The position numbers were made by a program, and so were the translations under genes. From Deltaproteobacteria bacterium (GTDB lineage Bacteria > UBA10199 > JADGCS01), in assembly GCA_015228875.1 (NCBI GenBank), contig JADGCS010000001.1:55886-119885 (forward strand): a stretch of DNA of 64,000 nt. The letters run 5' to 3'. A model generated the notes under the pieces. That model was not told the DNA's origin and made no database searches. It saw nothing but the letters and a program-made list of their open reading frames with translations. Of this stretch, positions 1 through 61,703 are shown piece after piece; position 1 is the stretch's first letter; each line of letters begins with the position of its first letter.

Positions 1-48
1 ATGAGGTGCCAGCCCCTTTAGTATTTTCGGCTTGATGCGGGTTATGGT
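1..48 (+). repeat. Repeat family B (REP-like), partial copy at the window edge
   Basis: gtattttcggcttgatgcgggttatgg matches the 3' end of family B. Confidence 0.5.
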
Positions 49-15063: not shown

Positions 15064-15153
15064 CCCTAACCCGCATAAAGCGGAAAAACCTACGCGGGCA
15101 GGCGACTCGAAAATTTTGTTGCCGAAACGCGTAGAAAAAACCTATCTAGGTTC
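15064..15153 (-). repeat. Repeat family B copy (inverted)
   Basis: ccctaacccgcataaagcggaaaaacctacgcggg...gaaacgcgtagaaaaaacctatctaggttc. Confidence 0.8.
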
Positions 15154-15154
15154 T

Positions 15155-15625
15155 ATGGCAAAAAAGACCGAAGAGGGCGGGATTAAAATTGTCTGCGAAA
15201 ATAGAAAGGCCAGATTCCTTTACCAACTCACAGATCGTTTTGAGGCTGGGATCGTTCTGACCGGCTCGGAGGTCAAGTCCATCAGAAAAGGCCAGGTGAA
15301 TCTCACAGATGCCTATGCCGACATCCACAACGATGAGGCCTTTATTCTGCAAATGCACATCTCTCCCTACGATAAAGGGGGCTATGCCAATCACGAACCC
15401 AAACGAAAGAGAAAACTTCTGCTGCATAAACGTGAGATTTTAAAGCTCATTGGAAAAACAGAGATCAAGGGAATGACCCTGATTCCACTCAAGGTCTACT
15501 TTAAAAATGGAAAGGCCAAGATTGAACTGGCTCTGGGATCAGGAAAAAAGGGCCCTGACAAAAGACAGACAATCAAAGAACGTGAAACAAAACGGGAACT
15601 CGATCGCGAGATGAAAAGGAGATAA
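15155..15625 (+). CDS. smpB: SsrA-binding protein
   Basis: ENRKARFLYQLTDRFEAGIVLTGSEVKSIR...LLLHKREI, and a basic C-terminal tail. The tool ORF starts upstream inside a family-B repeat; the true start is ATG 15155. Confidence 0.9.
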   Translation: MAKKTEEGGIKIVCENRKARFLYQLTDRFEAGIVLTGSEVKSIRKGQVNLTDAYADIHNDEAFILQMHISPYDKGGYANHEPKRKRKLLLHKREILKLIGKTEIKGMTLIPLKVYFKNGKAKIELALGSGKKGPDKRQTIKERETKRELDREMKRR

Positions 15626-15630
15626 GTTAA

Positions 15631-17433
15631 ATGCAGACAGATACCATTGCCTCACCAGTGATTGTTCCCCGCAAAAAAATCAAGGGGAGCAGAATTATTA
15701 TCAGCTGTCTTGAGAGGGAGGGGGTAGATACCGTGTTTGGTTATCCCGGCGGGGCATCCATGGATATTCATCAAGCGCTTACCTTGTCAAAAAAAATCAG
15801 GGTGGTTCTGCCCAGACACGAGCAGGGAGCGGCGTTTGCTGCCTCAGGTTACGCGCGGGCCACGGGCAAACCAGGGGTCTGCCTTGCGGCCTCAGGCCCC
15901 GGGGCAACCAACCTCATCACGGGGATCATGGACGCAAGACTCGATTCGATTCCCATGGTGATTCTCACAGGGCAGGTTGCGACAAAAGTCATCGGGACGG
16001 ATGCCTTTCAGGAAACAGACATTGTGGGTGCCACATTGCCCTGTGTCAAGCACAGCTACCTCATGAAGGACGTCAATGACATCTCATGGGTGATGAAAGA
16101 GGCCTTTCATCTGGCAAGCTCCAACCGTCCAGGACCTGTGTTGATTGACTTTCCCGTTGATATCCAGCAGGCGCTCGCTGTCCTTGATGACAACGCCGAA
16201 CGCAAAAGAAGCGGGGCTGTTTTTAAAACAGAACCGGCCAAAGGGCAGATCAAAAAGGCCCTTGGGCTGATTAACGAGGCGCAACGGCCCGTTATCTATG
16301 CCGGTGGCGGCATCATATCGGGAAATGCCTCTGATGAACTGAGAAGGTTTGTCAAAAAAACGGGGATCCCTGTAACAACCACCAGCATGGGGCTGGGCGC
16401 ATTTCCAGAGGACGACCCCTTGTCACTGCATATGCTGGGGATGCACGGCGCTGTTTACGCCAATATGGCCATCGCCCGTGCTGATCTTGTCATCGCGCTG
16501 GGGACGCGCTTTGACAACAAGGTGACTGGCAAGATTTCAGAATTTTGCAAAAACGCAAAGATCATTCATGTCGATATCGATGCGAGCGAGATCAACAAAA
16601 ACACAATTGTGGCCCTCCCCATTCAGGGGGATGTCCGGCAGACACTCGAAGCATTCAACACAGAGGCAGTCAAACTTAATATTGAACCCTGGATCAACGA
16701 GATCCAAAAATTAAAAAAAGAATTTGCGCACAGTTATCCAAAGTCAAAAGAGCACATCGTGCCGCAGGCCGTGATTGTAGAGTTGTCCGGGCTTGTCCCC
16801 AACGATGCCGTGGTCTGCACGGGGGTGGGACAGCATCAAATGTGGACCGCACAGTTTTTCAAGTTTAAAAATCCGAGGAGTTTTATTTCGTCCTGCGGCC
16901 TGGGGGCTATGGGATTTGGCCTTCCGGCGGCCATAGGGGCACAGGTGGCTTTTCCGAACAGAATGGTGATCGATATCGACGGCGACGGCAGTTTTTTAAT
17001 GAACATTCAGGAGCTTCAAACCCTTAAGACAGAGAACATCCCGGTCAAGTGCGTTGTGCTCAACAACAGCTATCTTGGCATGATGGCACAGTGGGAAGAT
17101 CGTTATTACAAATCCGTGCGTGGCCACACCTGTCTTGGCGAGGCCAATTTTGCCGAGATTGCCAAGGCGTTTGGCATTGCGGGGGCAACGGTCTCAAGGT
17201 CTGAAGATGTCGCACCGGCCCTTAAGGAGATGTTATCACACAAGGGGGCCTACGTGCTTGATGTCAAGTACCCCTACAACGATGCTACTCACGGGCATGT
17301 GCTGCCGATGATCCCTGCGGACGGGACGTATTTGGATTCGATATTACCGGGTGGGGTTATCCTGCGCGACTACCTGAAGCAGAAGGGTGCAACGGAGTGC
17401 TGCGTATCAAAAGACCGCCCTGCAGGTCTTTAA
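15631..17433 (+). CDS. ilvB: Acetolactate synthase large-subunit-like TPP enzyme
   Basis: GYPGGASMDIHQAL, GPGATNLITGIMDA, and the TPP-binding GDGSFLMNIQEL...NNSYLGMM. Confidence 0.85.
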   Translation: MQTDTIASPVIVPRKKIKGSRIIISCLEREGVDTVFGYPGGASMDIHQALTLSKKIRVVLPRHEQGAAFAASGYARATGKPGVCLAASGPGATNLITGIMDARLDSIPMVILTGQVATKVIGTDAFQETDIVGATLPCVKHSYLMKDVNDISWVMKEAFHLASSNRPGPVLIDFPVDIQQALAVLDDNAERKRSGAVFKTEPAKGQIKKALGLINEAQRPVIYAGGGIISGNASDELRRFVKKTGIPVTTTSMGLGAFPEDDPLSLHMLGMHGAVYANMAIARADLVIALGTRFDNKVTGKISEFCKNAKIIHVDIDASEINKNTIVALPIQGDVRQTLEAFNTEAVKLNIEPWINEIQKLKKEFAHSYPKSKEHIVPQAVIVELSGLVPNDAVVCTGVGQHQMWTAQFFKFKNPRSFISSCGLGAMGFGLPAAIGAQVAFPNRMVIDIDGDGSFLMNIQELQTLKTENIPVKCVVLNNSYLGMMAQWEDRYYKSVRGHTCLGEANFAEIAKAFGIAGATVSRSEDVAPALKEMLSHKGAYVLDVKYPYNDATHGHVLPMIPADGTYLDSILPGGVILRDYLKQKGATECCVSKDRPAGL

Positions 17434-18928
17434 CAGGGATGCTTTTAAAACCTTGGAAGGTTTTTTCTACGCGTTTCGGCATCAATTTTTGCATGGTGTC
17501 CGCCCGCGTAGTATTTTCCGCTTTATGCGGGTTATGACTCACCCTGCCTTCGATCTGCCAGTCATCGTTTAACGGAAAACAAATCAGGGTAAAGGGGTCA
17601 GGGCGCTCCATCAGCCTGTATTTTTTTCCGACAATTTCAAACTCATCACCGGCCTTTAATCCCAGCGGGAGGGAGGGCAGTGCCCTTTTGTAGTTTGTAA
17701 ACGTCGACGGATTAACATGATTAAGGTCGATGACCTCTCTGATGAGATAACCGTTTGCATCGATGGTTTCTATGATGATGGTTGGCTCCTTGATCTCTGC
17801 AATTTTACCTGTTTTATCCTTGATTGTAACGCAGTCTCCCTGCGTGAGTGATTGCACGAGTGTTTTGATTTCGTCCCTGATCCTGAACGTGTGAGGGTTG
17901 ACGTCGTTGAGGTCAACGGGTTCCGTGACCACGACCCCCTTGGCATCGACGGCCTCAATGAACATGACATAGTCGTTGATCGCGGCAACCCTTCCCCTTT
18001 TTTCCTTAAGACTGATGTAGTCCCCGACCTTGATTGCGGCAATGAGCGCTGGATGTTTGTCGCGTCGGGTAGTGGCGGTGCCGATCAATGCCGAGTTTGG
18101 GACTGTGACCACGACCCCATCACCAAACACGTCAAAGTCACGCAGTTCGACAGAAAAAGGGGTGACCTGTTTCACAACCCCTTTGTGTTCGCCAATAACA
18201 ATACTGTCGCCGATACCAAAGTGTTGGTACATATTGGAAAGAAAAAAAGTGGCGAGATTTTTTATCGGGTCCTGAAGTGCAAACCCCAGGCCCAGGCCCA
18301 GGAGTCCCATGCCTGCAACCAGTGCCGTGACATCTACCCCAATCGATTTAAGACCAAAGATCGCTGCCCCTCCAAGCAGGGCCGTCTGCGCAAGTTTGAG
18401 GCCAAGCCCCGTCATTTTTTTGCCGCGCTCGGTGATGTTGGGGTCGTCCTTTATGGCCTTTGCCCTGTTCGAAAGATGGCGATACAAAAGATAGGCGCCA
18501 AGCCCCAATGCCCCCACCTTGCCGATCCCGGGCAGTTGTCTGGTTATAAAATCGTTAATATTGAGAATGTTCCATGAGTGGAGGACAGCAAGCAACGCCC
18601 CCGTATCAAAGACAAGCTCCGCAGTTGTGAGCGCTGTATTAATAGCGGGTTTTGTTGTGTCCTTGATGCGGGATGACTGATGAATTTTTTGTTTTGCATA
18701 GCCCAGCGTACGGTGTAAGGCATACGCGCCCGTGGCAAGACCCGCAGTGGTCAAGAGTGGTGTCTGGACTGTCCTGAGCACACCCGCAACACTGTCAACC
18801 GTGAAAACAGCATGGGATAACCCCTGCAGGGAGGGTGTCGTCTTGACAGGTAACGCATGTTGTACCTGAGTGAGCGGGGAATGAAGAAAATGAGAAACGG
18901 GGCCGTGAAGCAGTTGTCCAAGGTGCAT
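17357..18928 (-). CDS. MscS-family mechanosensitive channel with duplicated C-terminal beta-domains
   Basis: Transmembrane segments, then GLGLGFALQDPIKNLATFFL...IGDSIVIGEHKGVVKQVTPFSVELRD, the MscS signature. An internal 40-aa duplication follows. The C-terminus as translated runs into a family-B repeat. Confidence 0.75.
   Translation of the reverse strand: MHLGQLLHGPVSHFLHSPLTQVQHALPVKTTPSLQGLSHAVFTVDSVAGVLRTVQTPLLTTAGLATGAYALHRTLGYAKQKIHQSSRIKDTTKPAINTALTTAELVFDTGALLAVLHSWNILNINDFITRQLPGIGKVGALGLGAYLLYRHLSNRAKAIKDDPNITERGKKMTGLGLKLAQTALLGGAAIFGLKSIGVDVTALVAGMGLLGLGLGFALQDPIKNLATFFLSNMYQHFGIGDSIVIGEHKGVVKQVTPFSVELRDFDVFGDGVVVTVPNSALIGTATTRRDKHPALIAAIKVGDYISLKEKRGRVAAINDYVMFIEAVDAKGVVVTEPVDLNDVNPHTFRIRDEIKTLVQSLTQGDCVTIKDKTGKIAEIKEPTIIIETIDANGYLIREVIDLNHVNPSTFTNYKRALPSLPLGLKAGDEFEIVGKKYRLMERPDPFTLICFPLNDDWQIEGRVSHNPHKAENTTRADTMQKLMPKRVEKTFQGFKSIPVKDLQGGLLIRSTPLHPSASGSRAG
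17448..17546 (+). repeat. Repeat family B copy
   Basis: aaaccttggaaggttttttctacgcgtttcggcatcaatttttgcatggtgtccgcccgcgtagtattttccgctttatgcgggttatg. Confidence 0.85.
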
Positions 18929-19043
18929 AACAAAAAAACTGTCGCAGAGTATAAAAAAAATGGCAAGGAAAAAGTGGGTCGAAACAAAAAAACAAACCCC
19001 ATATAATCAACTGTTTGCAACGGTTGGGGAGGGGTGGCATGCC

Positions 19044-19077
19044 TCGCGTCATTGCGAGGAGCGCTAGCGACAAAGCA
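19044..19077 (+). repeat. Single family-C unit
   Basis: cgtcattgcgaggagcgctagcgacaaagcaatc matches the arms of the 26.3 kb hairpin. Confidence 0.6.
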
Positions 19078-19142
19078 ATCCAGTGATAACCATTGATTTT
19101 ACTGGATCGCCACGCAGGCCACCTTCGGTGGCTTGTGCGCGC

Positions 19143-20330
19143 TTATTTAACTGGTGTGTCCTGCCTGTTTTTGTGTTTGAGGGTCATGTGGTACTTGAGT
19201 GAGGCCCTGAGGGCACTTGCGCCCTGTGACGTTTTGATGAGTCTCACACTGACAATACGCGCAAGATTGCGGTAGATTTTTGCTGCAATGACAGGAAAAT
19301 TTCTTTCGATATTTTCGAGGTTGTTAAGATCGTGTACCAAAACATCTGCAGGGGACATGGCAATGACATCGGAAGAACGCGTGGTCTCGGCAAGGTAGGC
19401 CACCTCGCCGAATGTTTCTCCCTCGGAAAAACTGCAGATCTGATTGATGATGCCTTCGATCTCGTGACAGACCGAGACCTCTCCCGACAGCAGGGTGTAA
19501 ATCTCGTTTTTGGAGTCGCCAAACGTGATGATTTTATCGCCATTCTTGTATTTTTTTATTTTACCGAGACTGGTGATCAGTTGCACTTCTTCTTTTGACA
19601 TCGACTTGAAGAGATTAACCGTGTCACCGATGGTTGCCGAGATTTTTTCGGAGATGAGATCAAACGCGTCATCGTTGCTCATGGAGAGCTTGATTTCCCT
19701 GTCCGCGTAACGGGAGAAAACTTTTTTATAATGCTGGGCAGCATCCGGGGCGTTGGGAAATTTGACCGCGATTTCGACAAACGGAGAACAGACCGTGTCA
19801 AAGTGGTTGGTGTCTTCTGTCACAAGGACCATGGGGGTGGCATAGCCGCTTTCTGGGTGATTGATATTGGACATGTACTGTCTGAATCCCAGGTGTTCGA
19901 AAAGAGTAACAAGGTGTGCCCAACTGTCGATAAAAACATACTGGCACTTCTGCTTTCGGGCAAATTCGTAGCAGGCAAGGAGGAGTTCTTTTACAATCGA
20001 CCCGCCGCTGTGTGACTGACTGATAGCGAATTTGGTGAACATCGCCGTGTGACCCGGATAATAAGGTTTAAAACCGTCGAGTTCGTAAAAATTTTCGTGA
20101 TGAACAGGCCCGTCTTTAGAAAGGTTGACCCTTAAGGCCCCAACGACCTTGCCGTTTTCTACGGCGAAAAAGTTGTGTGCGTAGCTGTCACAGGGTTCGA
20201 TGAGTTGTTTACTGTCGTGGAGCGCGTGCTCTGGAAAAAGATGAAGTTCTTCGACAAAGACCTTGTAGCGCAAGTGATAGACAGCATCCTTGTCTTCTTT
20301 GGTCGTGGCTTCTTTAACTTGAATGGTCAT
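19143..20330 (-). CDS. GNAT-fold (N-acyl amino acid synthase-like) acyltransferase fused to a cyclic-nucleotide-binding domain
   Basis: N-terminal about 200 aa resemble acyl-CoA N-acyltransferases (ALRVNLSKDG...FIDSWAHLVTLFEHLGF). C-terminal FGEVAYL...RSSDVIAMSPADVL is a cNMP-binding fold. Confidence 0.5.
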   Translation of the reverse strand: MTIQVKEATTKEDKDAVYHLRYKVFVEELHLFPEHALHDSKQLIEPCDSYAHNFFAVENGKVVGALRVNLSKDGPVHHENFYELDGFKPYYPGHTAMFTKFAISQSHSGGSIVKELLLACYEFARKQKCQYVFIDSWAHLVTLFEHLGFRQYMSNINHPESGYATPMVLVTEDTNHFDTVCSPFVEIAVKFPNAPDAAQHYKKVFSRYADREIKLSMSNDDAFDLISEKISATIGDTVNLFKSMSKEEVQLITSLGKIKKYKNGDKIITFGDSKNEIYTLLSGEVSVCHEIEGIINQICSFSEGETFGEVAYLAETTRSSDVIAMSPADVLVHDLNNLENIERNFPVIAAKIYRNLARIVSVRLIKTSQGASALRASLKYHMTLKHKNRQDTPVK

Positions 20331-20665
20331 AAGGGCACCTTGTTATGGGGAAAAACAAGAAAAACAAAACACAAATAACTGCGGGGTTGTTTACTCGATC
20401 TTGGTCACGAATTCAACCGGAGATTTACTGTATCACATTGATTGCATTCTTGCCAAACTATCGATGACAGGTTGTTTTATCCGAGCATTGTTTTAACCCT
20501 TTCACACCTGTCACAAATACATTCTTCTCGCGCCCAAGAAATCGGTGTCGCATAAGGCTTCAACCAACGAACCCAAAAGGTCATTTTCAGGTATCACAGT
20601 CGAGAGTATCTCCCCGATGTGATCTATTGACAAGGATATAAAATATTGAATATACACTTTATTAT

Positions 20666-20938
20666 ATGTATACTGTTTATGAACACAAGAGAGTAAAATT
20701 GCAGATCAAGAAAGCTCCTCCAGATGTCAAAAGAAAGTATATGGCATGGAAAAGGATTATGGAACTCGAGGGTCAGTATGGACTGAGTTTTATCAAGGGA
20801 TTCCATGATGAGGGTTTAAAAGGCCAATGGAAAGGGTTTCGATCATCACGTCTTGGTTTAAAATGGCGCGTTATTTATAAAATATACAAGGATGATTTAG
20901 AGGTTTATGTGATCGAAATTAACCCACATAAATATTGA
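20666..20938 (+). CDS. higB: Type II toxin, RelE/ParE (HigB-like) family
   Basis: 90-aa basic protein ending ...GLKWRVIYKIYKDDLEVYVIEINPHKY, placed upstream of an HTH antitoxin. Confidence 0.7.
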   Translation: MYTVYEHKRVKLQIKKAPPDVKRKYMAWKRIMELEGQYGLSFIKGFHDEGLKGQWKGFRSSRLGLKWRVIYKIYKDDLEVYVIEINPHKY

Positions 20939-21222
20939 GAGGCAACATTATGAGAAAGATTAATAAAAAAAATTTTGAGAAAGCAAAAGATCACATCAAA
21001 ATGACTCCTGGTGAAATGCTTGTCACATTACGTAAACTGCAGGATATCTCGCAGAACGATTTGTCAGAGATGACGGGAATGAGCCAATCAAACATTTCCA
21101 ATATGGAATCAGGGCGCCAACAAATAGGAAGAGATAGAGCTCTCGTTTTGGCTCAGGCCCTCAAAGTGCATCCTTCAGTTATTCTGTTTCCAGATTACCA
21201 AATGGATGAATGTGCGGTATAA
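20935..21222 (+). CDS. higA: XRE-family HTH antitoxin (HigA-like)
   Basis: QNDLSEMTGMSQSNISNMESGRQ helix-turn-helix. Overlaps the higB stop. The alternative start ATG 20950 has a better RBS. Confidence 0.7.
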   Translation: MRGNIMRKINKKNFEKAKDHIKMTPGEMLVTLRKLQDISQNDLSEMTGMSQSNISNMESGRQQIGRDRALVLAQALKVHPSVILFPDYQMDECAV

Positions 21223-21235
21223 CGTTTCGATTACC

Positions 21236-21262
21236 TGCAGCGGCTGTGCCGCTGTCTTGACC
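21236..21262. terminator. Candidate bidirectional terminator hairpin between convergent higA and ORF 21323
   Basis: gcagcggctgtgccgctg stem-loop followed by a T-containing tract; weak. Confidence 0.3.
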
Positions 21263-21322
21263 TCCGTCTATTTTTGACCTTAAACGGGGCGGGCAACAGA
21301 GTCTCGTGATTACTGGTCAAGA

Positions 21323-22210
21323 TCAATTATGAAAAAGCGGCACCTCGCGCATCTTGTCAAACTCTGCGGTATGAAATCTTTTCATGCGCTCCAATACCTT
21401 TTTGCCTGAAGCGGTGAGCTTTATGTACACCCTGCCCATGCAGAAATAGCCTTCAATAGAGGACCGGAACCGGTTGAGTTGTGCCTCGAAGACAGCCATG
21501 TCACTCTCCATGGCCTCGATTTGATTTTTCTTGTCCCTTAAGATCTCTACCAGTTGATGGGCAGCATGGACGTGGTCGGCCCTCTTTTGTTCGAGGCGCT
21601 CCTTTTTTTTGCCCGCATCTATTTCGGGGTTGAAGTAGCTCATGAATGACCGCGTCATGACCATCCACGATGAATTGACATGCCAGGATGTGATTTGATC
21701 TTCTATTTTTTCTATCTCCCTTGTGTGATGCAGAAGTTTTTTTGTGATCTCTACTGTTTGTCTTCTGATCGGGAAGATCTGATCCTGAACCGACTGGATA
21801 AAACCCTTAAGGGCTGAAATCTCAGAGACCTCCCATTGAATTTCCTGGGCAGCGCGCATTTTTACAAGGCCCTCATCGTTAAGCCTGTTAAGAAAAGAGA
21901 GGGGAACTGTTTCGAGATCATGGTTTGTTGTCCCTGTTTCGGCAAAGAGCAGGACGTCGAATTTTTTTACCTGTATGGAATCTGTTGCCGAAAAATCGCT
22001 TCTGATCCTTTCTATTTTTTTGCCTGGCCCCACTGTTTCTGAAGAGGGCGTTTGTAAATCCGATTGATAGGTGAGGGATTCATCCGCATCCAATGTCCCC
22101 GGAGGTACATCAGAGACAGAGATGCTTAACTCGTGCGAGAGCCCGCGATATTTTATATGGTCAGTCATGGCAGCAAGATAACGCATGAAGGAAATGATGA
22201 CTATAGGCAT
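21323..22210 (-). CDS. Hypothetical coiled-coil protein
   Basis: Long ORF without recognisable motifs. Confidence 0.4.
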   Translation of the reverse strand: MPIVIISFMRYLAAMTDHIKYRGLSHELSISVSDVPPGTLDADESLTYQSDLQTPSSETVGPGKKIERIRSDFSATDSIQVKKFDVLLFAETGTTNHDLETVPLSFLNRLNDEGLVKMRAAQEIQWEVSEISALKGFIQSVQDQIFPIRRQTVEITKKLLHHTREIEKIEDQITSWHVNSSWMVMTRSFMSYFNPEIDAGKKKERLEQKRADHVHAAHQLVEILRDKKNQIEAMESDMAVFEAQLNRFRSSIEGYFCMGRVYIKLTASGKKVLERMKRFHTAEFDKMREVPLFHN

Positions 22211-41702: not shown

Positions 41703-41924
41703 GGGGTTGTCCTCGCAAAAGTCTTTGTCCTACAATGTCTTGATGGTCTTTATTAAAGAAAAACTTAAAACCACAGAACGGTTGCAGCAACGACAAAGCT
41801 CAGGCAGGTCTTCTGACTTATGGGACTTGATATGATTTTATCAAGAGACGATTAAGGCAACCTTCCCATGTTTTGTCTGGCAAGCTAGCGCTTGGCGCAA
41901 CTACGCGACGAAATCTTCTGTTTT

Positions 41925-41967
41925 GCACGGGATGCACCCGCGCTCAATTGACTTTGAAATTCCCAGA
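41925..41967 (-). repeat. Repeat family A partial copy
   Basis: gcacgggatgcacccgcgctcaattgactttgaaattcc. Confidence 0.6.
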
Positions 41968-42096
41968 CACCAACACACAGTGGTTATACGCCCTACAACC
42001 CCATTTACAGCGGCGGGACCGCGCCGGATTTGCACCGGCTTCCCGTTTAATCCCCGAGGGGAACCTGATGTGTGGTATTTACACGGCGTTGTGATT

Positions 42097-53991: not shown

Positions 53992-54083
53992 GAACCTTGG
54001 AAGGTTTTTTCTACGCGTTTCGACATCAATTTTTGCATGGTGTCCGCCCGCGTAGTTTTTTCGGATTTATGCGGGTTATGGGA
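53992..54083 (+). repeat. Repeat family B copy
   Basis: gaaccttggaaggttttttctacgcgtttcgacatcaatttttgcatggtgtccgcccgcgtagttttttcggatttatgcgggttatgg. Confidence 0.85.
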
Positions 54084-55827: not shown

Positions 55828-56727
55828 TTGAAACATGTTTTTATATTTTTACTACTTATGGTCCTGATTCCGCAACATTCCTTTGCAGAACTCACAAAAA
55901 GACACAACATCCCTCACGACGGTGTGATTAATCTCTACTCCTACCACTTCAACGAATTTCTCCATATAAAGTACCTCGATGAACAGGGTCGCTGGATTGA
56001 AAGTGCCTACAAAAAAATAAATTACATCCTCAGATCACGCAAGGACAATCAGGAGATCAACATGAGCAAACCGCTCGTTGAGCTTGCGGATCACCTGCAG
56101 GATCACTTTAAGGCCGATACCATAGAGGTCATCAGCGCCTACCGCAGCCCCGAGTTTAACAAGGCCCTCAGAGATGCGGGCCGCAATGTGGGAGAAAAGA
56201 GTTATCATATAAAAGGCATGGCCATGGATATTCACATCGACGAGGTCCGTGAAACAACCCTGCGTGATTATCTCTTGTCACTGAGGATGGGCGGTGTGGG
56301 TTACTACGGGCCAGAACTCATGGTACACATGGACCTTGGCCCTGTTCGTCAATGGCAGGGCGGTGCGTTTAAAGACAATACCGAGATCGGTTATTTTTCA
56401 AAGGGTCCGATAAAAATCAGGACCGACCGGTTGTATTATCGTAAAGACGCGGCTCTGCGCATATCAATGGAAGGGTTCGTGCCCACAGGGGGGACAAAAC
56501 TTGTTTTGCAAAAATTTTACCGCGGTCATTTTGTAAAAGCGGGTGATTGCTCTTTTCTCCTTGCCCAAAAACGGGCCGGGGCCACTGGACAGGTGGGGAT
56601 AGTGACCACTGTACGTGATGTCACGGGCGCAATGACATCCCAAAGCCCCCTTGGAAGATTCAGACTGAGGCTTCAGGGCAGGGGACAGTGGCAGAATTCA
56701 AACGAGTTTTACATTAAGGGGATTTAA
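55828..56727 (+). CDS. DUF882 / peptidase M15-like (YcbK-type) secreted protein
   Basis: Signal peptide, then VISAYRSPEFN...SYHIKGMAMDIHID, a motif typical of DUF882. Confidence 0.7.
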   Translation: MKHVFIFLLLMVLIPQHSFAELTKRHNIPHDGVINLYSYHFNEFLHIKYLDEQGRWIESAYKKINYILRSRKDNQEINMSKPLVELADHLQDHFKADTIEVISAYRSPEFNKALRDAGRNVGEKSYHIKGMAMDIHIDEVRETTLRDYLLSLRMGGVGYYGPELMVHMDLGPVRQWQGGAFKDNTEIGYFSKGPIKIRTDRLYYRKDAALRISMEGFVPTGGTKLVLQKFYRGHFVKAGDCSFLLAQKRAGATGQVGIVTTVRDVTGAMTSQSPLGRFRLRLQGRGQWQNSNEFYIKGI

Positions 56728-59959: not shown

Positions 59960-61489
59960 ATGTCAACCATCTTCAATCACCTTCTCTCAAACCAAACACC
60001 CTACACCATCATCCTTGCACTTGTGCTGCTGCATTTTATACTCAAGGTCATTGACACAAGGGTAATCAAAAAAAACAGGCACATCGCATCCCTCATCCGG
60101 GCATTTAGAAATCTGGTCCTGCCGACCTCCATCACCCTTGTGGTTGTGCTTAAAATTCTCAACTATCCTGACACCTCAACACCTGTCAGGCTTGTTAACA
60201 CCCTGCTGTGGGTCTTTGTTTTTCATATCATCCTGTCCCTTCTTAACGTTATCCTGTTTGTTGGGGAACACAAGGGATCCTGGCGCGATCAGGTTCCAAA
60301 AATCTTTGTCAATCTCTCACGTCTTGTTTTGATCCTCATTGGTCTTGCCTTTATTCTCTCGGTTGTCTGGGGACAGGATCTCAAGGCCCTCTTTGCTGCA
60401 CTGGGTGTGGGTTCGATTGTGGTTGGCTTTGCCCTGCAGGATACACTGGGGAGCCTCTTTGCGGGTATCGCACTCTTGTCCGAAAAGGCCTACAAGGTGG
60501 GCGATTGGATCGAGATTGGTGAGACAAAAGGGAGGATTGTCGATGTCAACTGGCGGTCCGTGAGCTTGCAGACACGTGAACACGACCTGGTGCGTATCCC
60601 CAACTCTGTGATGGGAAATCAGATCATTAAAAATCTTAACAGACCAACCACGGTTCATACCGAGATCGTCAATATTGGTTTTTCATACAACGATCCCCCC
60701 AATCAGGTTAAGGAACTTCTTAAACAGGCGGCACTGACCACAAAGGGTGTTCTGCCAAACCCAGTTCCAGAGGTGCAAACCATGGGTTATAACGATTCTG
60801 CAATAGACTACCGCGTCCTTCTGCACCTCAGCGACCTCAACCACCTTTTAAAAATCCGCGACGACTTTTTATCGCAGGTCTGGTACCTCGCCAAAAGAAA
60901 CAAGCTCACGATCCCGTTTCCGATCAGGACTATCCACAGGGAGACGCAGGTGCATCGCAAGGCACCGCACACGTCACCGTCACTTGTTAATCTTCTCAGG
61001 GCTGTTTCCATTTTTTCACCTCTTGAGGAGGCAGATCTTGTGACACTTGCTGACAACGCGCTCACGGAACACTACGGTAAAACCGAAAGGATTGTCAGGC
61101 AGGGTGATCCCGGAAACGCCTTTTATGTGATTATCAATGGCGAGGCGGTTGTTGAGGTGTGCGACGATCACGGCAAGATGCAGACTGTCGGCAGGATCAA
61201 AAAAGGTGATTTTTTTGGTGAGATGTCCCTGCTCACAGGAGAACCGCGTTCCGCCTTTGTCACAGCCCAGCAAGATATGGACGTTCTTGTGATTTATCCC
61301 GGCGCGTTAAAGCCACTCCTCGAAAGTAAAACAGAGATTGCGTTACAAATGGCCGAAATTATCGAGACCCGCAAAAAAGGACTCAAAGAGGTCAGGGAAA
61401 AGGCCCATCTGTCGCCTGCCGAAGTTTCAGAGATCAACGGCAGGGTGAACAAACTGTTTAACAGGATCAAACATTTTGTGGGTGTGTAG
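59960..61489 (+). CDS. MscS-family mechanosensitive channel fused to C-terminal cyclic-nucleotide-binding domain
   Basis: VGFALQDTLGSLFAGIAL...VGDWIEIGETKGRIVDV (MscS), then RQGDPGNAFYVIINGEA...GDFFGEMSLLTGEPRSA (cNMP-binding). Confidence 0.8.
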   Translation: MSTIFNHLLSNQTPYTIILALVLLHFILKVIDTRVIKKNRHIASLIRAFRNLVLPTSITLVVVLKILNYPDTSTPVRLVNTLLWVFVFHIILSLLNVILFVGEHKGSWRDQVPKIFVNLSRLVLILIGLAFILSVVWGQDLKALFAALGVGSIVVGFALQDTLGSLFAGIALLSEKAYKVGDWIEIGETKGRIVDVNWRSVSLQTREHDLVRIPNSVMGNQIIKNLNRPTTVHTEIVNIGFSYNDPPNQVKELLKQAALTTKGVLPNPVPEVQTMGYNDSAIDYRVLLHLSDLNHLLKIRDDFLSQVWYLAKRNKLTIPFPIRTIHRETQVHRKAPHTSPSLVNLLRAVSIFSPLEEADLVTLADNALTEHYGKTERIVRQGDPGNAFYVIINGEAVVEVCDDHGKMQTVGRIKKGDFFGEMSLLTGEPRSAFVTAQQDMDVLVIYPGALKPLLESKTEIALQMAEIIETRKKGLKEVREKAHLSPAEVSEINGRVNKLFNRIKHFVGV

Positions 61490-61509: not shown

Positions 61510-61703
61510 GAACCTTGGAAGGTTTTTTCTACGCGTATCGGCATCAATTTTTGCATGGTGTCCGCCCGCGTAGTATTTTCCGCTTTATGCGAGTTATGTT
61601 TTTTCTACGCGCAGGGGTTTGGCGCATTTCGTCAAACATGAAATCATTCATGTTTGAACGCAATGCACCCCGCGCAGTATTTTCAGCTTTATGCGGGTTA
61701 TGG
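61510..61703 (+). repeat. Two tandem repeat family B copies; the second has a variant core with a perfect caaacatgaa/ttcatgtttg hairpin
   Basis: gaaccttggaaggttttttctacgcgtatcggc...gctttatgcgagttatg, then ttttttctacgcgcagggg...cgcgcagtattttcagctttatgcgggttatgg. Confidence 0.85.

Follow-up and report, generated by a model that had tools for sequence, protein, structure and literature searches.

A FeeM-like acyltransferase fused to a cyclic-nucleotide-binding domain, and the gene neighbourhoods of its relatives

We analysed a stretch of 64,000 nucleotides from a Deltaproteobacteria bacterium (GTDB lineage Bacteria; UBA10199; JADGCS01), covering positions 55,886 to 119,885 of the forward strand of contig JADGCS010000001.1 (assembly GCA_015228875.1), which we call the window and number from its first letter. 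On its minus strand, at 19143-20330, lies a gene whose product joins an N-terminal acyltransferase domain of the GNAT fold to a cyclic-nucleotide-binding (CNB) domain at its C terminus. A preliminary description of the window had singled out this fusion and a second one, of a mechanosensitive channel with a CNB domain, and had suggested that cyclic nucleoside monophosphates (cNMPs) directly control the channel and an acyl-transfer reaction, possibly the synthesis of an N-acyl signal. What we observed are the domain architecture, fold, motif conservation, family size and gene neighbourhoods of the acyltransferase fusion, and on these we build the proposal, held with moderate confidence, that the protein is an N-acyl amino acid synthase under allosteric control by cyclic AMP (cAMP).

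The fusion gene and its two domains

The gene and its parts are arranged as follows:

19143..20330, minus strand: FeeM-like GNAT-CNB fusion gene, 395 aa, MBF0103757.1 (open reading frame list, Pfam, exact NCBI match, AlphaFold2 model)
19821..20285, minus strand: FeeM/LuxI-fold GNAT acyltransferase domain, N-terminal (aa 16-170 by Pfam; fold about aa 1-185)
20007..20009, minus strand: codon of Ser108, where GNAT motif A (R-G-x-G) has its Arg (column counts, profile alignment)
19296..19610, minus strand: CRP-type CNB domain, C-terminal (aa 241-345)
19359..19421, minus strand: phosphate-binding cassette GETFGEVAYLAETTRSSDVIA (aa 304-324; sequence and conservation in 74 family members)
19161..19295, minus strand: long C-terminal helix after the CNB domain (aa 346-390; DSSP on the AlphaFold2 model)

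The open reading frame (ORF) starts with an ATG at 20330, behind a Shine-Dalgarno-like AAGGTG motif, and ends in a stop codon at 19143-19145. Pfam recognizes both halves of its product: FeeM (PF21926) matches residues 16-170 at E 7.9e-10 and 39.2 bits (cutoff 27), spanning model positions 1-155 of 158, and cNMP_binding (PF00027) matches residues 259-341 at E 5.5e-13 and 49.1 bits (cutoff 27.5). Generic GNAT models match as well, more weakly. A profile of the N-terminal domain built from 59 members reaches the CoA-dependent acyl-homoserine lactone (AHL) synthase BjaI at E 4.6e-6, and a smaller family profile did not reach FeeM or the AHL synthases by sequence. The identification of the N-terminal domain as an acyltransferase, for which the preliminary description had allowed that a profile search might overturn it, was therefore kept, and Pfam confirmed both CNB fusions where they had been placed. 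Across all six frames of the 64 kb, a CNB hidden Markov model (HMM) found exactly two CNB domains. The span first marked, 17357-20330, takes in two genes, the fusion and a MscS-like gene described below; NCBI records for a contig of 125 kb already annotate these and the channel fusion (MBF0103757.1, MBF0103756.1 and MBF0103795.1, respectively).

An AlphaFold2 model computed from 74 aligned two-domain relatives has a mean pLDDT of 93.6 and a pTM of 0.80, and we used it instead of a run on a five-sequence alignment, which reached a pLDDT of only 65. It lays out a GNAT fold at about residues 1-185, a helical linker at residues 185-240 (the least confident part), a CNB beta-roll at residues 241-345 and a helix at residues 346-390. 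The GNAT part shows the FeeM/LuxI variant of the fold, with FeeM as the top fold match and the best-scoring GNAT-type Pfam model. The C-terminal helix resembles the CRP C-helix and is possibly a dimerization element, as in CRP. Taken as a whole, the product is most likely a soluble two-domain enzyme.

The CNB assignment draws on the profile match, the beta-roll and the cassette. In the window protein the GETFGEVAYLAETTRSSDVIA cassette is intact, with G304, G308, E309, R318 and S319 in the motif G-E-x-F-G-E...R-S. Among the 74 family members, the equivalent of G308 is kept in 72, E309 in 65 and R318 in 58, and Ser or Thr stands at 319 in 44. We take the cassette Gly, the Glu (to the ribose 2'-OH) and the Arg-Ser/Thr pair (to the phosphate) to be the ribose and phosphate contacts of canonical CNB domains.

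Set against known systems, the window protein works like a hybrid of the FeeM/OxzA/TyzA enzymes, which would supply the chemistry, and mycobacterial Pat, a cAMP-gated GNAT. It shares the family profile and the fold variant of the former (PF21926; PDB 2G0B), but its identity to FeeM is only 14%, a CNB domain follows its GNAT domain, and no tailoring genes lie near it. The proposed likeness to Pat (Rv0998 / MSMEG_5458; PDB 4AVA) is one of function, namely a cAMP-activated GNAT with a CNB domain. Pat has its CNB domain at the N terminus; the window protein has the reverse domain order and belongs to another GNAT subfamily, and its predicted acceptor is a free amino acid rather than a protein lysine. 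The NCBIfam Pat model NF058543 gives it 21 bits (cutoff 460), over the CNB part only (residues 239-354). With the LuxI-type AHL synthases (LasI, TofI, BjaI and RpaI) it shares the FeeM/LuxI-fold GNAT domain, but the matched structures of that group have about 184-221 residues and no C-terminal CNB domain. PF00765 (Autoind_synth) gives no match to the window protein at E<=0.1. Two further comparisons also stayed below their cutoffs: the PEP-CTERM/exosortase acyltransferase model TIGR03694 (22.2 bits, cutoff 111.95, residues 3-71 only) and the OlsB models NF052554 and NF052555 (16.2 and 13.4 bits, cutoffs 350 and 320).

Relatives of the fusion and the genes beside them

The architecture had been called uncommon at the outset, which is true of the close subfamily and not of the wider family. 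A word-indexed search gave five or six known proteins above 40% identity, and a scan of 185,579 GTDB species genomes with patterns from a five-sequence full-length alignment matched neither this subfamily nor the metagenome-assembled genome (MAG) of the window. When the N-terminal domain alone was searched exhaustively as an HMM against 1.84 billion representatives of 50%-identity clusters, 2797 matched at E<1e-3 and 338 at E<1e-30. A CNB domain (Pfam, E<=0.001) is present in 78 of the 150 best representatives. Most of those without one are stand-alone proteins of 190-305 residues, and rare additional fusions within the 150 bring in a methyltransferase in three cases, a PP-binding carrier domain in one and B12/radical-SAM in one. 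PF21926 matches 139 of the 150 as well. By the similarity of their N-terminal domains, fused and stand-alone forms fall largely into separate groups: 92% of the fused and 81% of the stand-alone forms have a nearest neighbour of their own type.

A second GTDB scan, with the N-terminal alignment, retrieved 17 species genomes, every one of which encodes the fusion: one Nitrospirales MAG (46% identity) and 16 from Leptospira/Leptospiraceae/Spirochaetales. Cultured carriers include L. vanthielii, L. jelokensis, L. idonii, L. ilyithenensis and L. soteropolitanensis. Given this family size and these cultured carriers, we regard the architecture as unstudied rather than rare: it is visible in databases by domain annotation, yet uncharacterized as far as the searchable literature shows, where we found no description of a FeeM-CNB fusion. 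The protein MBF0105556.1 is 46% identical to MBF0103757.1, and the closeness of the two accession numbers suggests that they are paralogues from one MAG.

We then compared the surroundings of 101 loci (79 metagenome loci, 17 genome loci and 5 contigs of closer relatives), in which ORFs were called, targets were located by HMM, neighbour ORFs were clustered and recurrent clusters were named with Pfam; individual loci carry L numbers. Cyclases recur beside the gene. In 12 of the 17 genome loci, a class III cyclase catalytic domain is encoded within 2 kb and divergently transcribed. Nine syntenic Leptospira loci have a divergent operon that starts about 100 bp upstream and encodes a membrane sensor-PP2C protein (SpoIIE) followed by a class III cyclase of 311-316 residues. 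The sensor-PP2C protein is the divergent neighbour in 13 Leptospira-type loci, nine of which have the separate cyclase gene behind it. A reading of the divergent neighbour as a HAMP-cyclase in 16 of the 17 genome loci was accordingly dropped, as it is the sensor-PP2C protein in 13 of them. True HAMP-cyclases occur in L087, L088 and L089. They are adjacent and divergent in L088 (85 bp) and L089 (7 bp); in L087 the cyclase sits 1.9 kb upstream of the target. A differently built cyclase, a Ser/Thr-kinase-AAA16-cyclase, directly adjoins the gene in metagenome loci L018, L021 and L076; L054 has an ORF with a cyclase domain directly upstream.

The motif K-x-[ILM]-G-D is present in 15 of 17 aligned cyclase domains, including all 12 from genome loci, with its Lys at the substrate-specifying position; we take this Lys to mark adenylate-type class III cyclases with ATP specificity. 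Because three unrelated cyclase architectures adjoin one effector family, we argue that the CNB domain of the family is probably a true cNMP sensor, and its ligand is likely cAMP.

The Leptospira signalling cluster (L090-L098 and L101) extends on both sides of the target. Its upstream part, at about 100-2600 bp, holds the divergent sensor-PP2C (SpoIIE) and 311-316-aa cyclase genes; its downstream part, at 0-2 kb, holds genes for an RsbW-like HATPase (DUF6272), a 115-aa ORF, an S-adenosylmethionine (SAM) methyltransferase and a TetR regulator. These loci are syntenic across species and set among PP2C and anti-sigma partner-switching genes.

The other recurrent neighbours are genes of tailoring and export. 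Of the 51 non-redundant two-domain entries whose flank measures 3 kb or more, 10 have a ThiF gene within 3 kb; in L006/L007, L009 and L013 it is the next gene downstream, on the same strand. Five of the 10 also have a nitroreductase-family protein, encoded separately or fused to ThiF. In the OxzAB oxazolone pathway an N-acyltransferase gene lies upstream of one for a ThiF-nitroreductase didomain, and TyzACB combines an N-acyl amino acid synthase with a ThiF cyclase and a flavin oxidase, with mmpL9 alongside. ThiF and nitroreductase genes next to relatives of the window protein match the scheme published for oxzAB and tyzACB, and the oxazolone papers that we searched mention no cyclic-nucleotide domain. 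An MMPL transporter gene adjoins both closest relatives with known context, one of which also has ThiF. A B12 radical-SAM gene overlaps the end of the gene in the Nitrospirales locus and in L030, L035/36 and L047, and a SAM methyltransferase gene lies about 0.9 kb downstream in nine Leptospira loci. In five loci (L086, L089, L092, L099 and L100) a methyltransferase domain is fused C-terminally to give GNAT-CNB-methyltransferase proteins of 661-691 residues. Further recurrent neighbours are upstream 7TM-GAF histidine kinases, sigma-54 regulators and PEP-CTERM proteins, the last flanking relatives in L002, L006/L007 and L009.

Several loci have arrangements of their own. In L006 (7728-13513; L007 is near-identical) a ThiF - nitroreductase - PEP-CTERM block stands between two GNAT-CNB paralogues, and both sides also have a 7TM-GAF histidine kinase and sigma-54 regulators. 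In L086 the three-domain gene is followed directly, on the same strand, by genes for an Ion_trans channel and a MIP aquaporin. In L085 (5064-6955, minus strand) the Nitrospirales GNAT-CNB / radical-SAM operon has CysK-like (PALP) and CysE-like (hexapeptide) genes just upstream; in M. tuberculosis, cysK1 and cysE border the tyz cluster, a parallel that may be coincidence. A contig-edge ORF in L048 (2-955) has the CNB domain (aa 31-126) before the GNAT domain (aa 148-313); this may be a variant with the domain order reversed, or a pair of tandem genes taken for a single one. A gene for a Haem_oxygenas_2 'iron-containing redox enzyme' repeatedly partners stand-alone GNAT homologues (L017, L019, L024, L025, L028 and L066), and L025 has several tandem GNAT/redox pairs.

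The mechanosensitive channels and other features of the window

Two channel genes and a dispersed repeat accompany the fusion in the window:

17357..18928, minus strand: MscS-like gene, 523 aa, MBF0103756.1; TM3 and a single beta domain, no CNB domain (Pfam, repeats)
17446..17534, minus strand: copy of a dispersed repeat of about 90 nt within the MscS-like ORF, at its 3' end (inverted repeat with 15067-15155)
59960..61489, plus strand: MscS-CNB channel gene, 509 aa, MBF0103795.1 (Pfam, sequence, bCNG review)
60311-60907, plus strand: MS_channel_1st, 2nd and 3rd domains of the MscS-CNB protein (aa 118-316; Pfam)
61067-61327, plus strand: CNB domain of the MscS-CNB protein (aa 370-456) with cassette FGEMSLLTGEPRSAFVTA (Pfam cNMP_binding, E 2.4e-20)
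24-43(-), 15067-15155(+), 17446-17534(-), 54002-54077(-), 61520-61595(-) and 61680-61699(-): copies of the repeat

By its domain content the MscS-CNB protein is an ordinary new member of the known bCNG channel type, and it is unrelated to the acyltransferase apart from the shared sensor domain. It has the full bCNG layout, with the MscS TM3, beta and alpha-beta domains, a linker and a C-terminal CNB domain, and its cassette FGEMSLLTGEPRSAFVTA is canonical. A 2026 review, which cites Caldwell 2010 and Malcolm 2012, describes bCNG channels as a known family of MscS-like channels that end in a CNB domain, and places them in Gram-negative bacteria, mostly cyanobacteria (PMC13591265); the window channel, in contrast, comes from a 'Deltaproteobacteria' MAG. 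According to the same review, overexpressed bCNG channels do not protect E. coli from osmotic downshock, no structure has been solved and the role of cNMPs in gating is still open (PMC13591265).

The MscS-like gene lies on the same strand as the GNAT-CNB gene and begins 214 nt downstream of it. As the preliminary description had it, the protein has no CNB domain: Pfam finds MS_channel_1st and 2nd only (aa 189-284), and on this domain content the ORF is a divergent MscS. Where the usual MscS C-terminal alpha-beta domain would be, at about residues 300-410 (17700-18030), stand two tandem repeats of about 54 residues (41% identical, E 6e-16) and a weaker third. Across 17000-21400 a simple scan reported nothing terminator-like on the minus strand, nor anything promoter-like on that strand within the 214-nt gap, so co-transcription of the two genes is possible. 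Among the 101 loci, a MscS gene is near a relative in one locus pair only (L035/L036), about 4 kb away; we therefore dropped MscS as a conserved partner gene. Since MscS is not a recurrent neighbour, the adjacency is probably incidental, and the MscS-like gene is probably not a functional partner of the GNAT-CNB gene.

The repeat, CATAACCCGCATAAAGCGGAAAATACTACGCGGGC...TGCCGAAACGCGTAGAAAAAACCTTCCAAGGTTCTA, is intergenic, about 90 nt long and contains internal hairpins. The window has six copies against 0.01 expected, one of which follows the MscS-CNB gene directly. Rfam has no family for the repeat. The last 60 or so codons of the MscS-like ORF (17357-17540) come from reading through the repeat and the antisense strand of a convergent gene for a thiamine pyrophosphate (TPP) enzyme, which the ORF overlaps by 77 nt, to 17433. 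For this reason the annotated C terminus of the MscS-like protein is probably not native.

The window neighbours of the GNAT-CNB gene are SmpB, the TPP enzyme (of acetolactate-synthase type), a toxin-antitoxin-like pair and several ORFs without a Pfam match. The pair is divergent from the GNAT-CNB gene and looks like a toxin-antitoxin module: a 90-aa ORF (20666-20938, plus strand) overlaps by 4 nt the gene for a 95-aa Xre-type helix-turn-helix protein (20935-21222, plus strand; PF01381), which matches PADLOC control-protein and capH-like models. Elsewhere, a cobalamin riboswitch (RF00174, 94 bits, E 4e-22) lies at 41786-42083 on the minus strand.

Proposed function, alternatives and meaning

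On balance we favour an N-acyl amino acid synthase under allosteric cAMP control as the identity of the window protein, its substrates, its ligand and the existence and direction of its regulation being what we infer. The GNAT domain would move a fatty acyl group from acyl-CoA or acyl-ACP onto the amino group of an amino acid. The CNB domain would bind cAMP and switch the acyltransferase allosterically, with binding altering access to the acyl-donor or acceptor site, and the long C-terminal helix might hold two subunits together in the manner of CRP. The first suggestion of direct cNMP control over N-acyl signal synthesis is strengthened by the cyclase and tailoring genes beside relatives, and weakened by a window copy that has no such partners.

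Several observations weigh against this proposal. In the 64-kb window, tblastn and custom HMMs found no ThiF, nitroreductase, MMPL, PEMT, radical-SAM, methyltransferase or class III cyclase gene. No conserved candidate for a catalytic residue can be assigned in the family, and where the WEWSR strand of BjaI has Glu the family column is hydrophobic. The cyclase-linked loci stand for about three independent lineages, not 16, since many of them are orthologues in synteny within Leptospira. CRP-family domains, moreover, may bind ligands other than cNMPs. Finally, the window protein departs from its family in GNAT motif A (R/Q-x-x-G-x-G/A), which serves to bind the pantetheine pyrophosphate. Profile alignment puts the family Arg first in this motif, in register with 'YRGAGLG' in 3fb3 and 'RRDGAL' in BjaI. 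The relatives read R-G-S in 71 of 74 cases and the window protein S108-G-G-S, keeping the glycine-rich loop and losing the Arg, so that acyl-donor binding could be weakened.

If the fold and the sensor are granted and the acceptor is not, the protein could be a cNMP-regulated transferase acting on protein lysines (as Pat does), polyamines or other amines, or SAM (LuxI-type). We consider this unlikely. The FeeM fold and Pfam matches speak for an amino acid acceptor, the Pat model fits the CNB part only, and PF00765 is matched by 1 of the 150 relatives (at 7.9e-4) and not by the window protein. Beside family members, the ThiF and nitroreductase, MMPL and methyltransferase genes are those of N-acyl amino acid pathways, and no LuxR-type neighbour was seen.

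Doubt about the sensor leads to a different alternative, in which the CNB domain binds another ligand, or acts only as a dimerization or scaffold module. CRP/FNR-type domains with non-nucleotide ligands exist (NtcA and CprK), the window encodes no cyclase and the cassette Arg is not universal (58/74, as above). The cassette of the window protein is nevertheless canonical and mostly conserved in the family, and cyclase genes of at least three architectures adjoin family members, which makes this alternative improbable in our estimation.

The loss of the motif A Arg raises the further prospect that catalysis is weakened in the window copy, a paralogue that would then be retained as a regulator or decoy that binds cNMPs rather than as an active synthase. 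It would fit with this that the suggested second copy in the MAG, MBF0105556.1, keeps the Arg and that pathway partners were not found near the gene in the window. However, GNAT motif A holds the pyrophosphate chiefly through backbone amides, and every other highly conserved family position is retained (R21, Y22, E28, D48, R67, F87, G148, R150, G162, P166, D173, S182 and P183). The ORF is also intact and has a good ribosome-binding site, and we give this explanation little chance. A Pycsar-like anti-phage system, with the acyltransferase as effector and a cyclic pyrimidine as trigger for cyclase and CNB-effector pairs, is very improbable: the PADLOC PycTIR and PycC models that match the window protein match MscS-CNB equally well and so reflect generic homology, the adjacent cyclases are HAMP-membrane or kinase-fused sensors with the adenylate-type Lys, the Leptospira loci are syntenic across species in their partner-switching context, and the window has no cyclase.

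The cAMP-controlled N-acyl amino acid synthase that we favour matters mainly beyond this locus. The window serves chiefly as a pointer to the family, its local copy being an orphan with a motif A blemish and its MscS-CNB an ordinary bCNG member. N-acyl amino acids and their oxazolone derivatives, such as the products of OxzAB in Proteobacteria and TyzACB/TrzAS in M. tuberculosis, are recently recognized bacterial lipids, and the control of their production is poorly known. A committing acyltransferase that carries its own cNMP sensor and is encoded beside sensor cyclases would provide a direct post-translational route from environmental signal to cAMP to lipid-signal output. After mycobacterial Pat, it would also be only the second cNMP-gated GNAT type, one with other chemistry and another domain order. 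Because cultured saprophytic Leptospira carry orthologues with a cyclase next door, the idea is testable now.

More broadly, and tentatively, we suggest that FeeM-CNB proteins may form a widespread class in which cAMP directly switches on the synthesis of N-acyl amino acid-derived lipids or signals, at the level of the enzyme rather than of transcription. The outputs would then be oxazolones, methyl esters and radical-SAM-modified products, and cyclase sensing would be tied to membrane or extracellular lipid signals in Leptospira, in Nitrospirales, in the MAG of the window and in lineages so far represented by metagenomes only.

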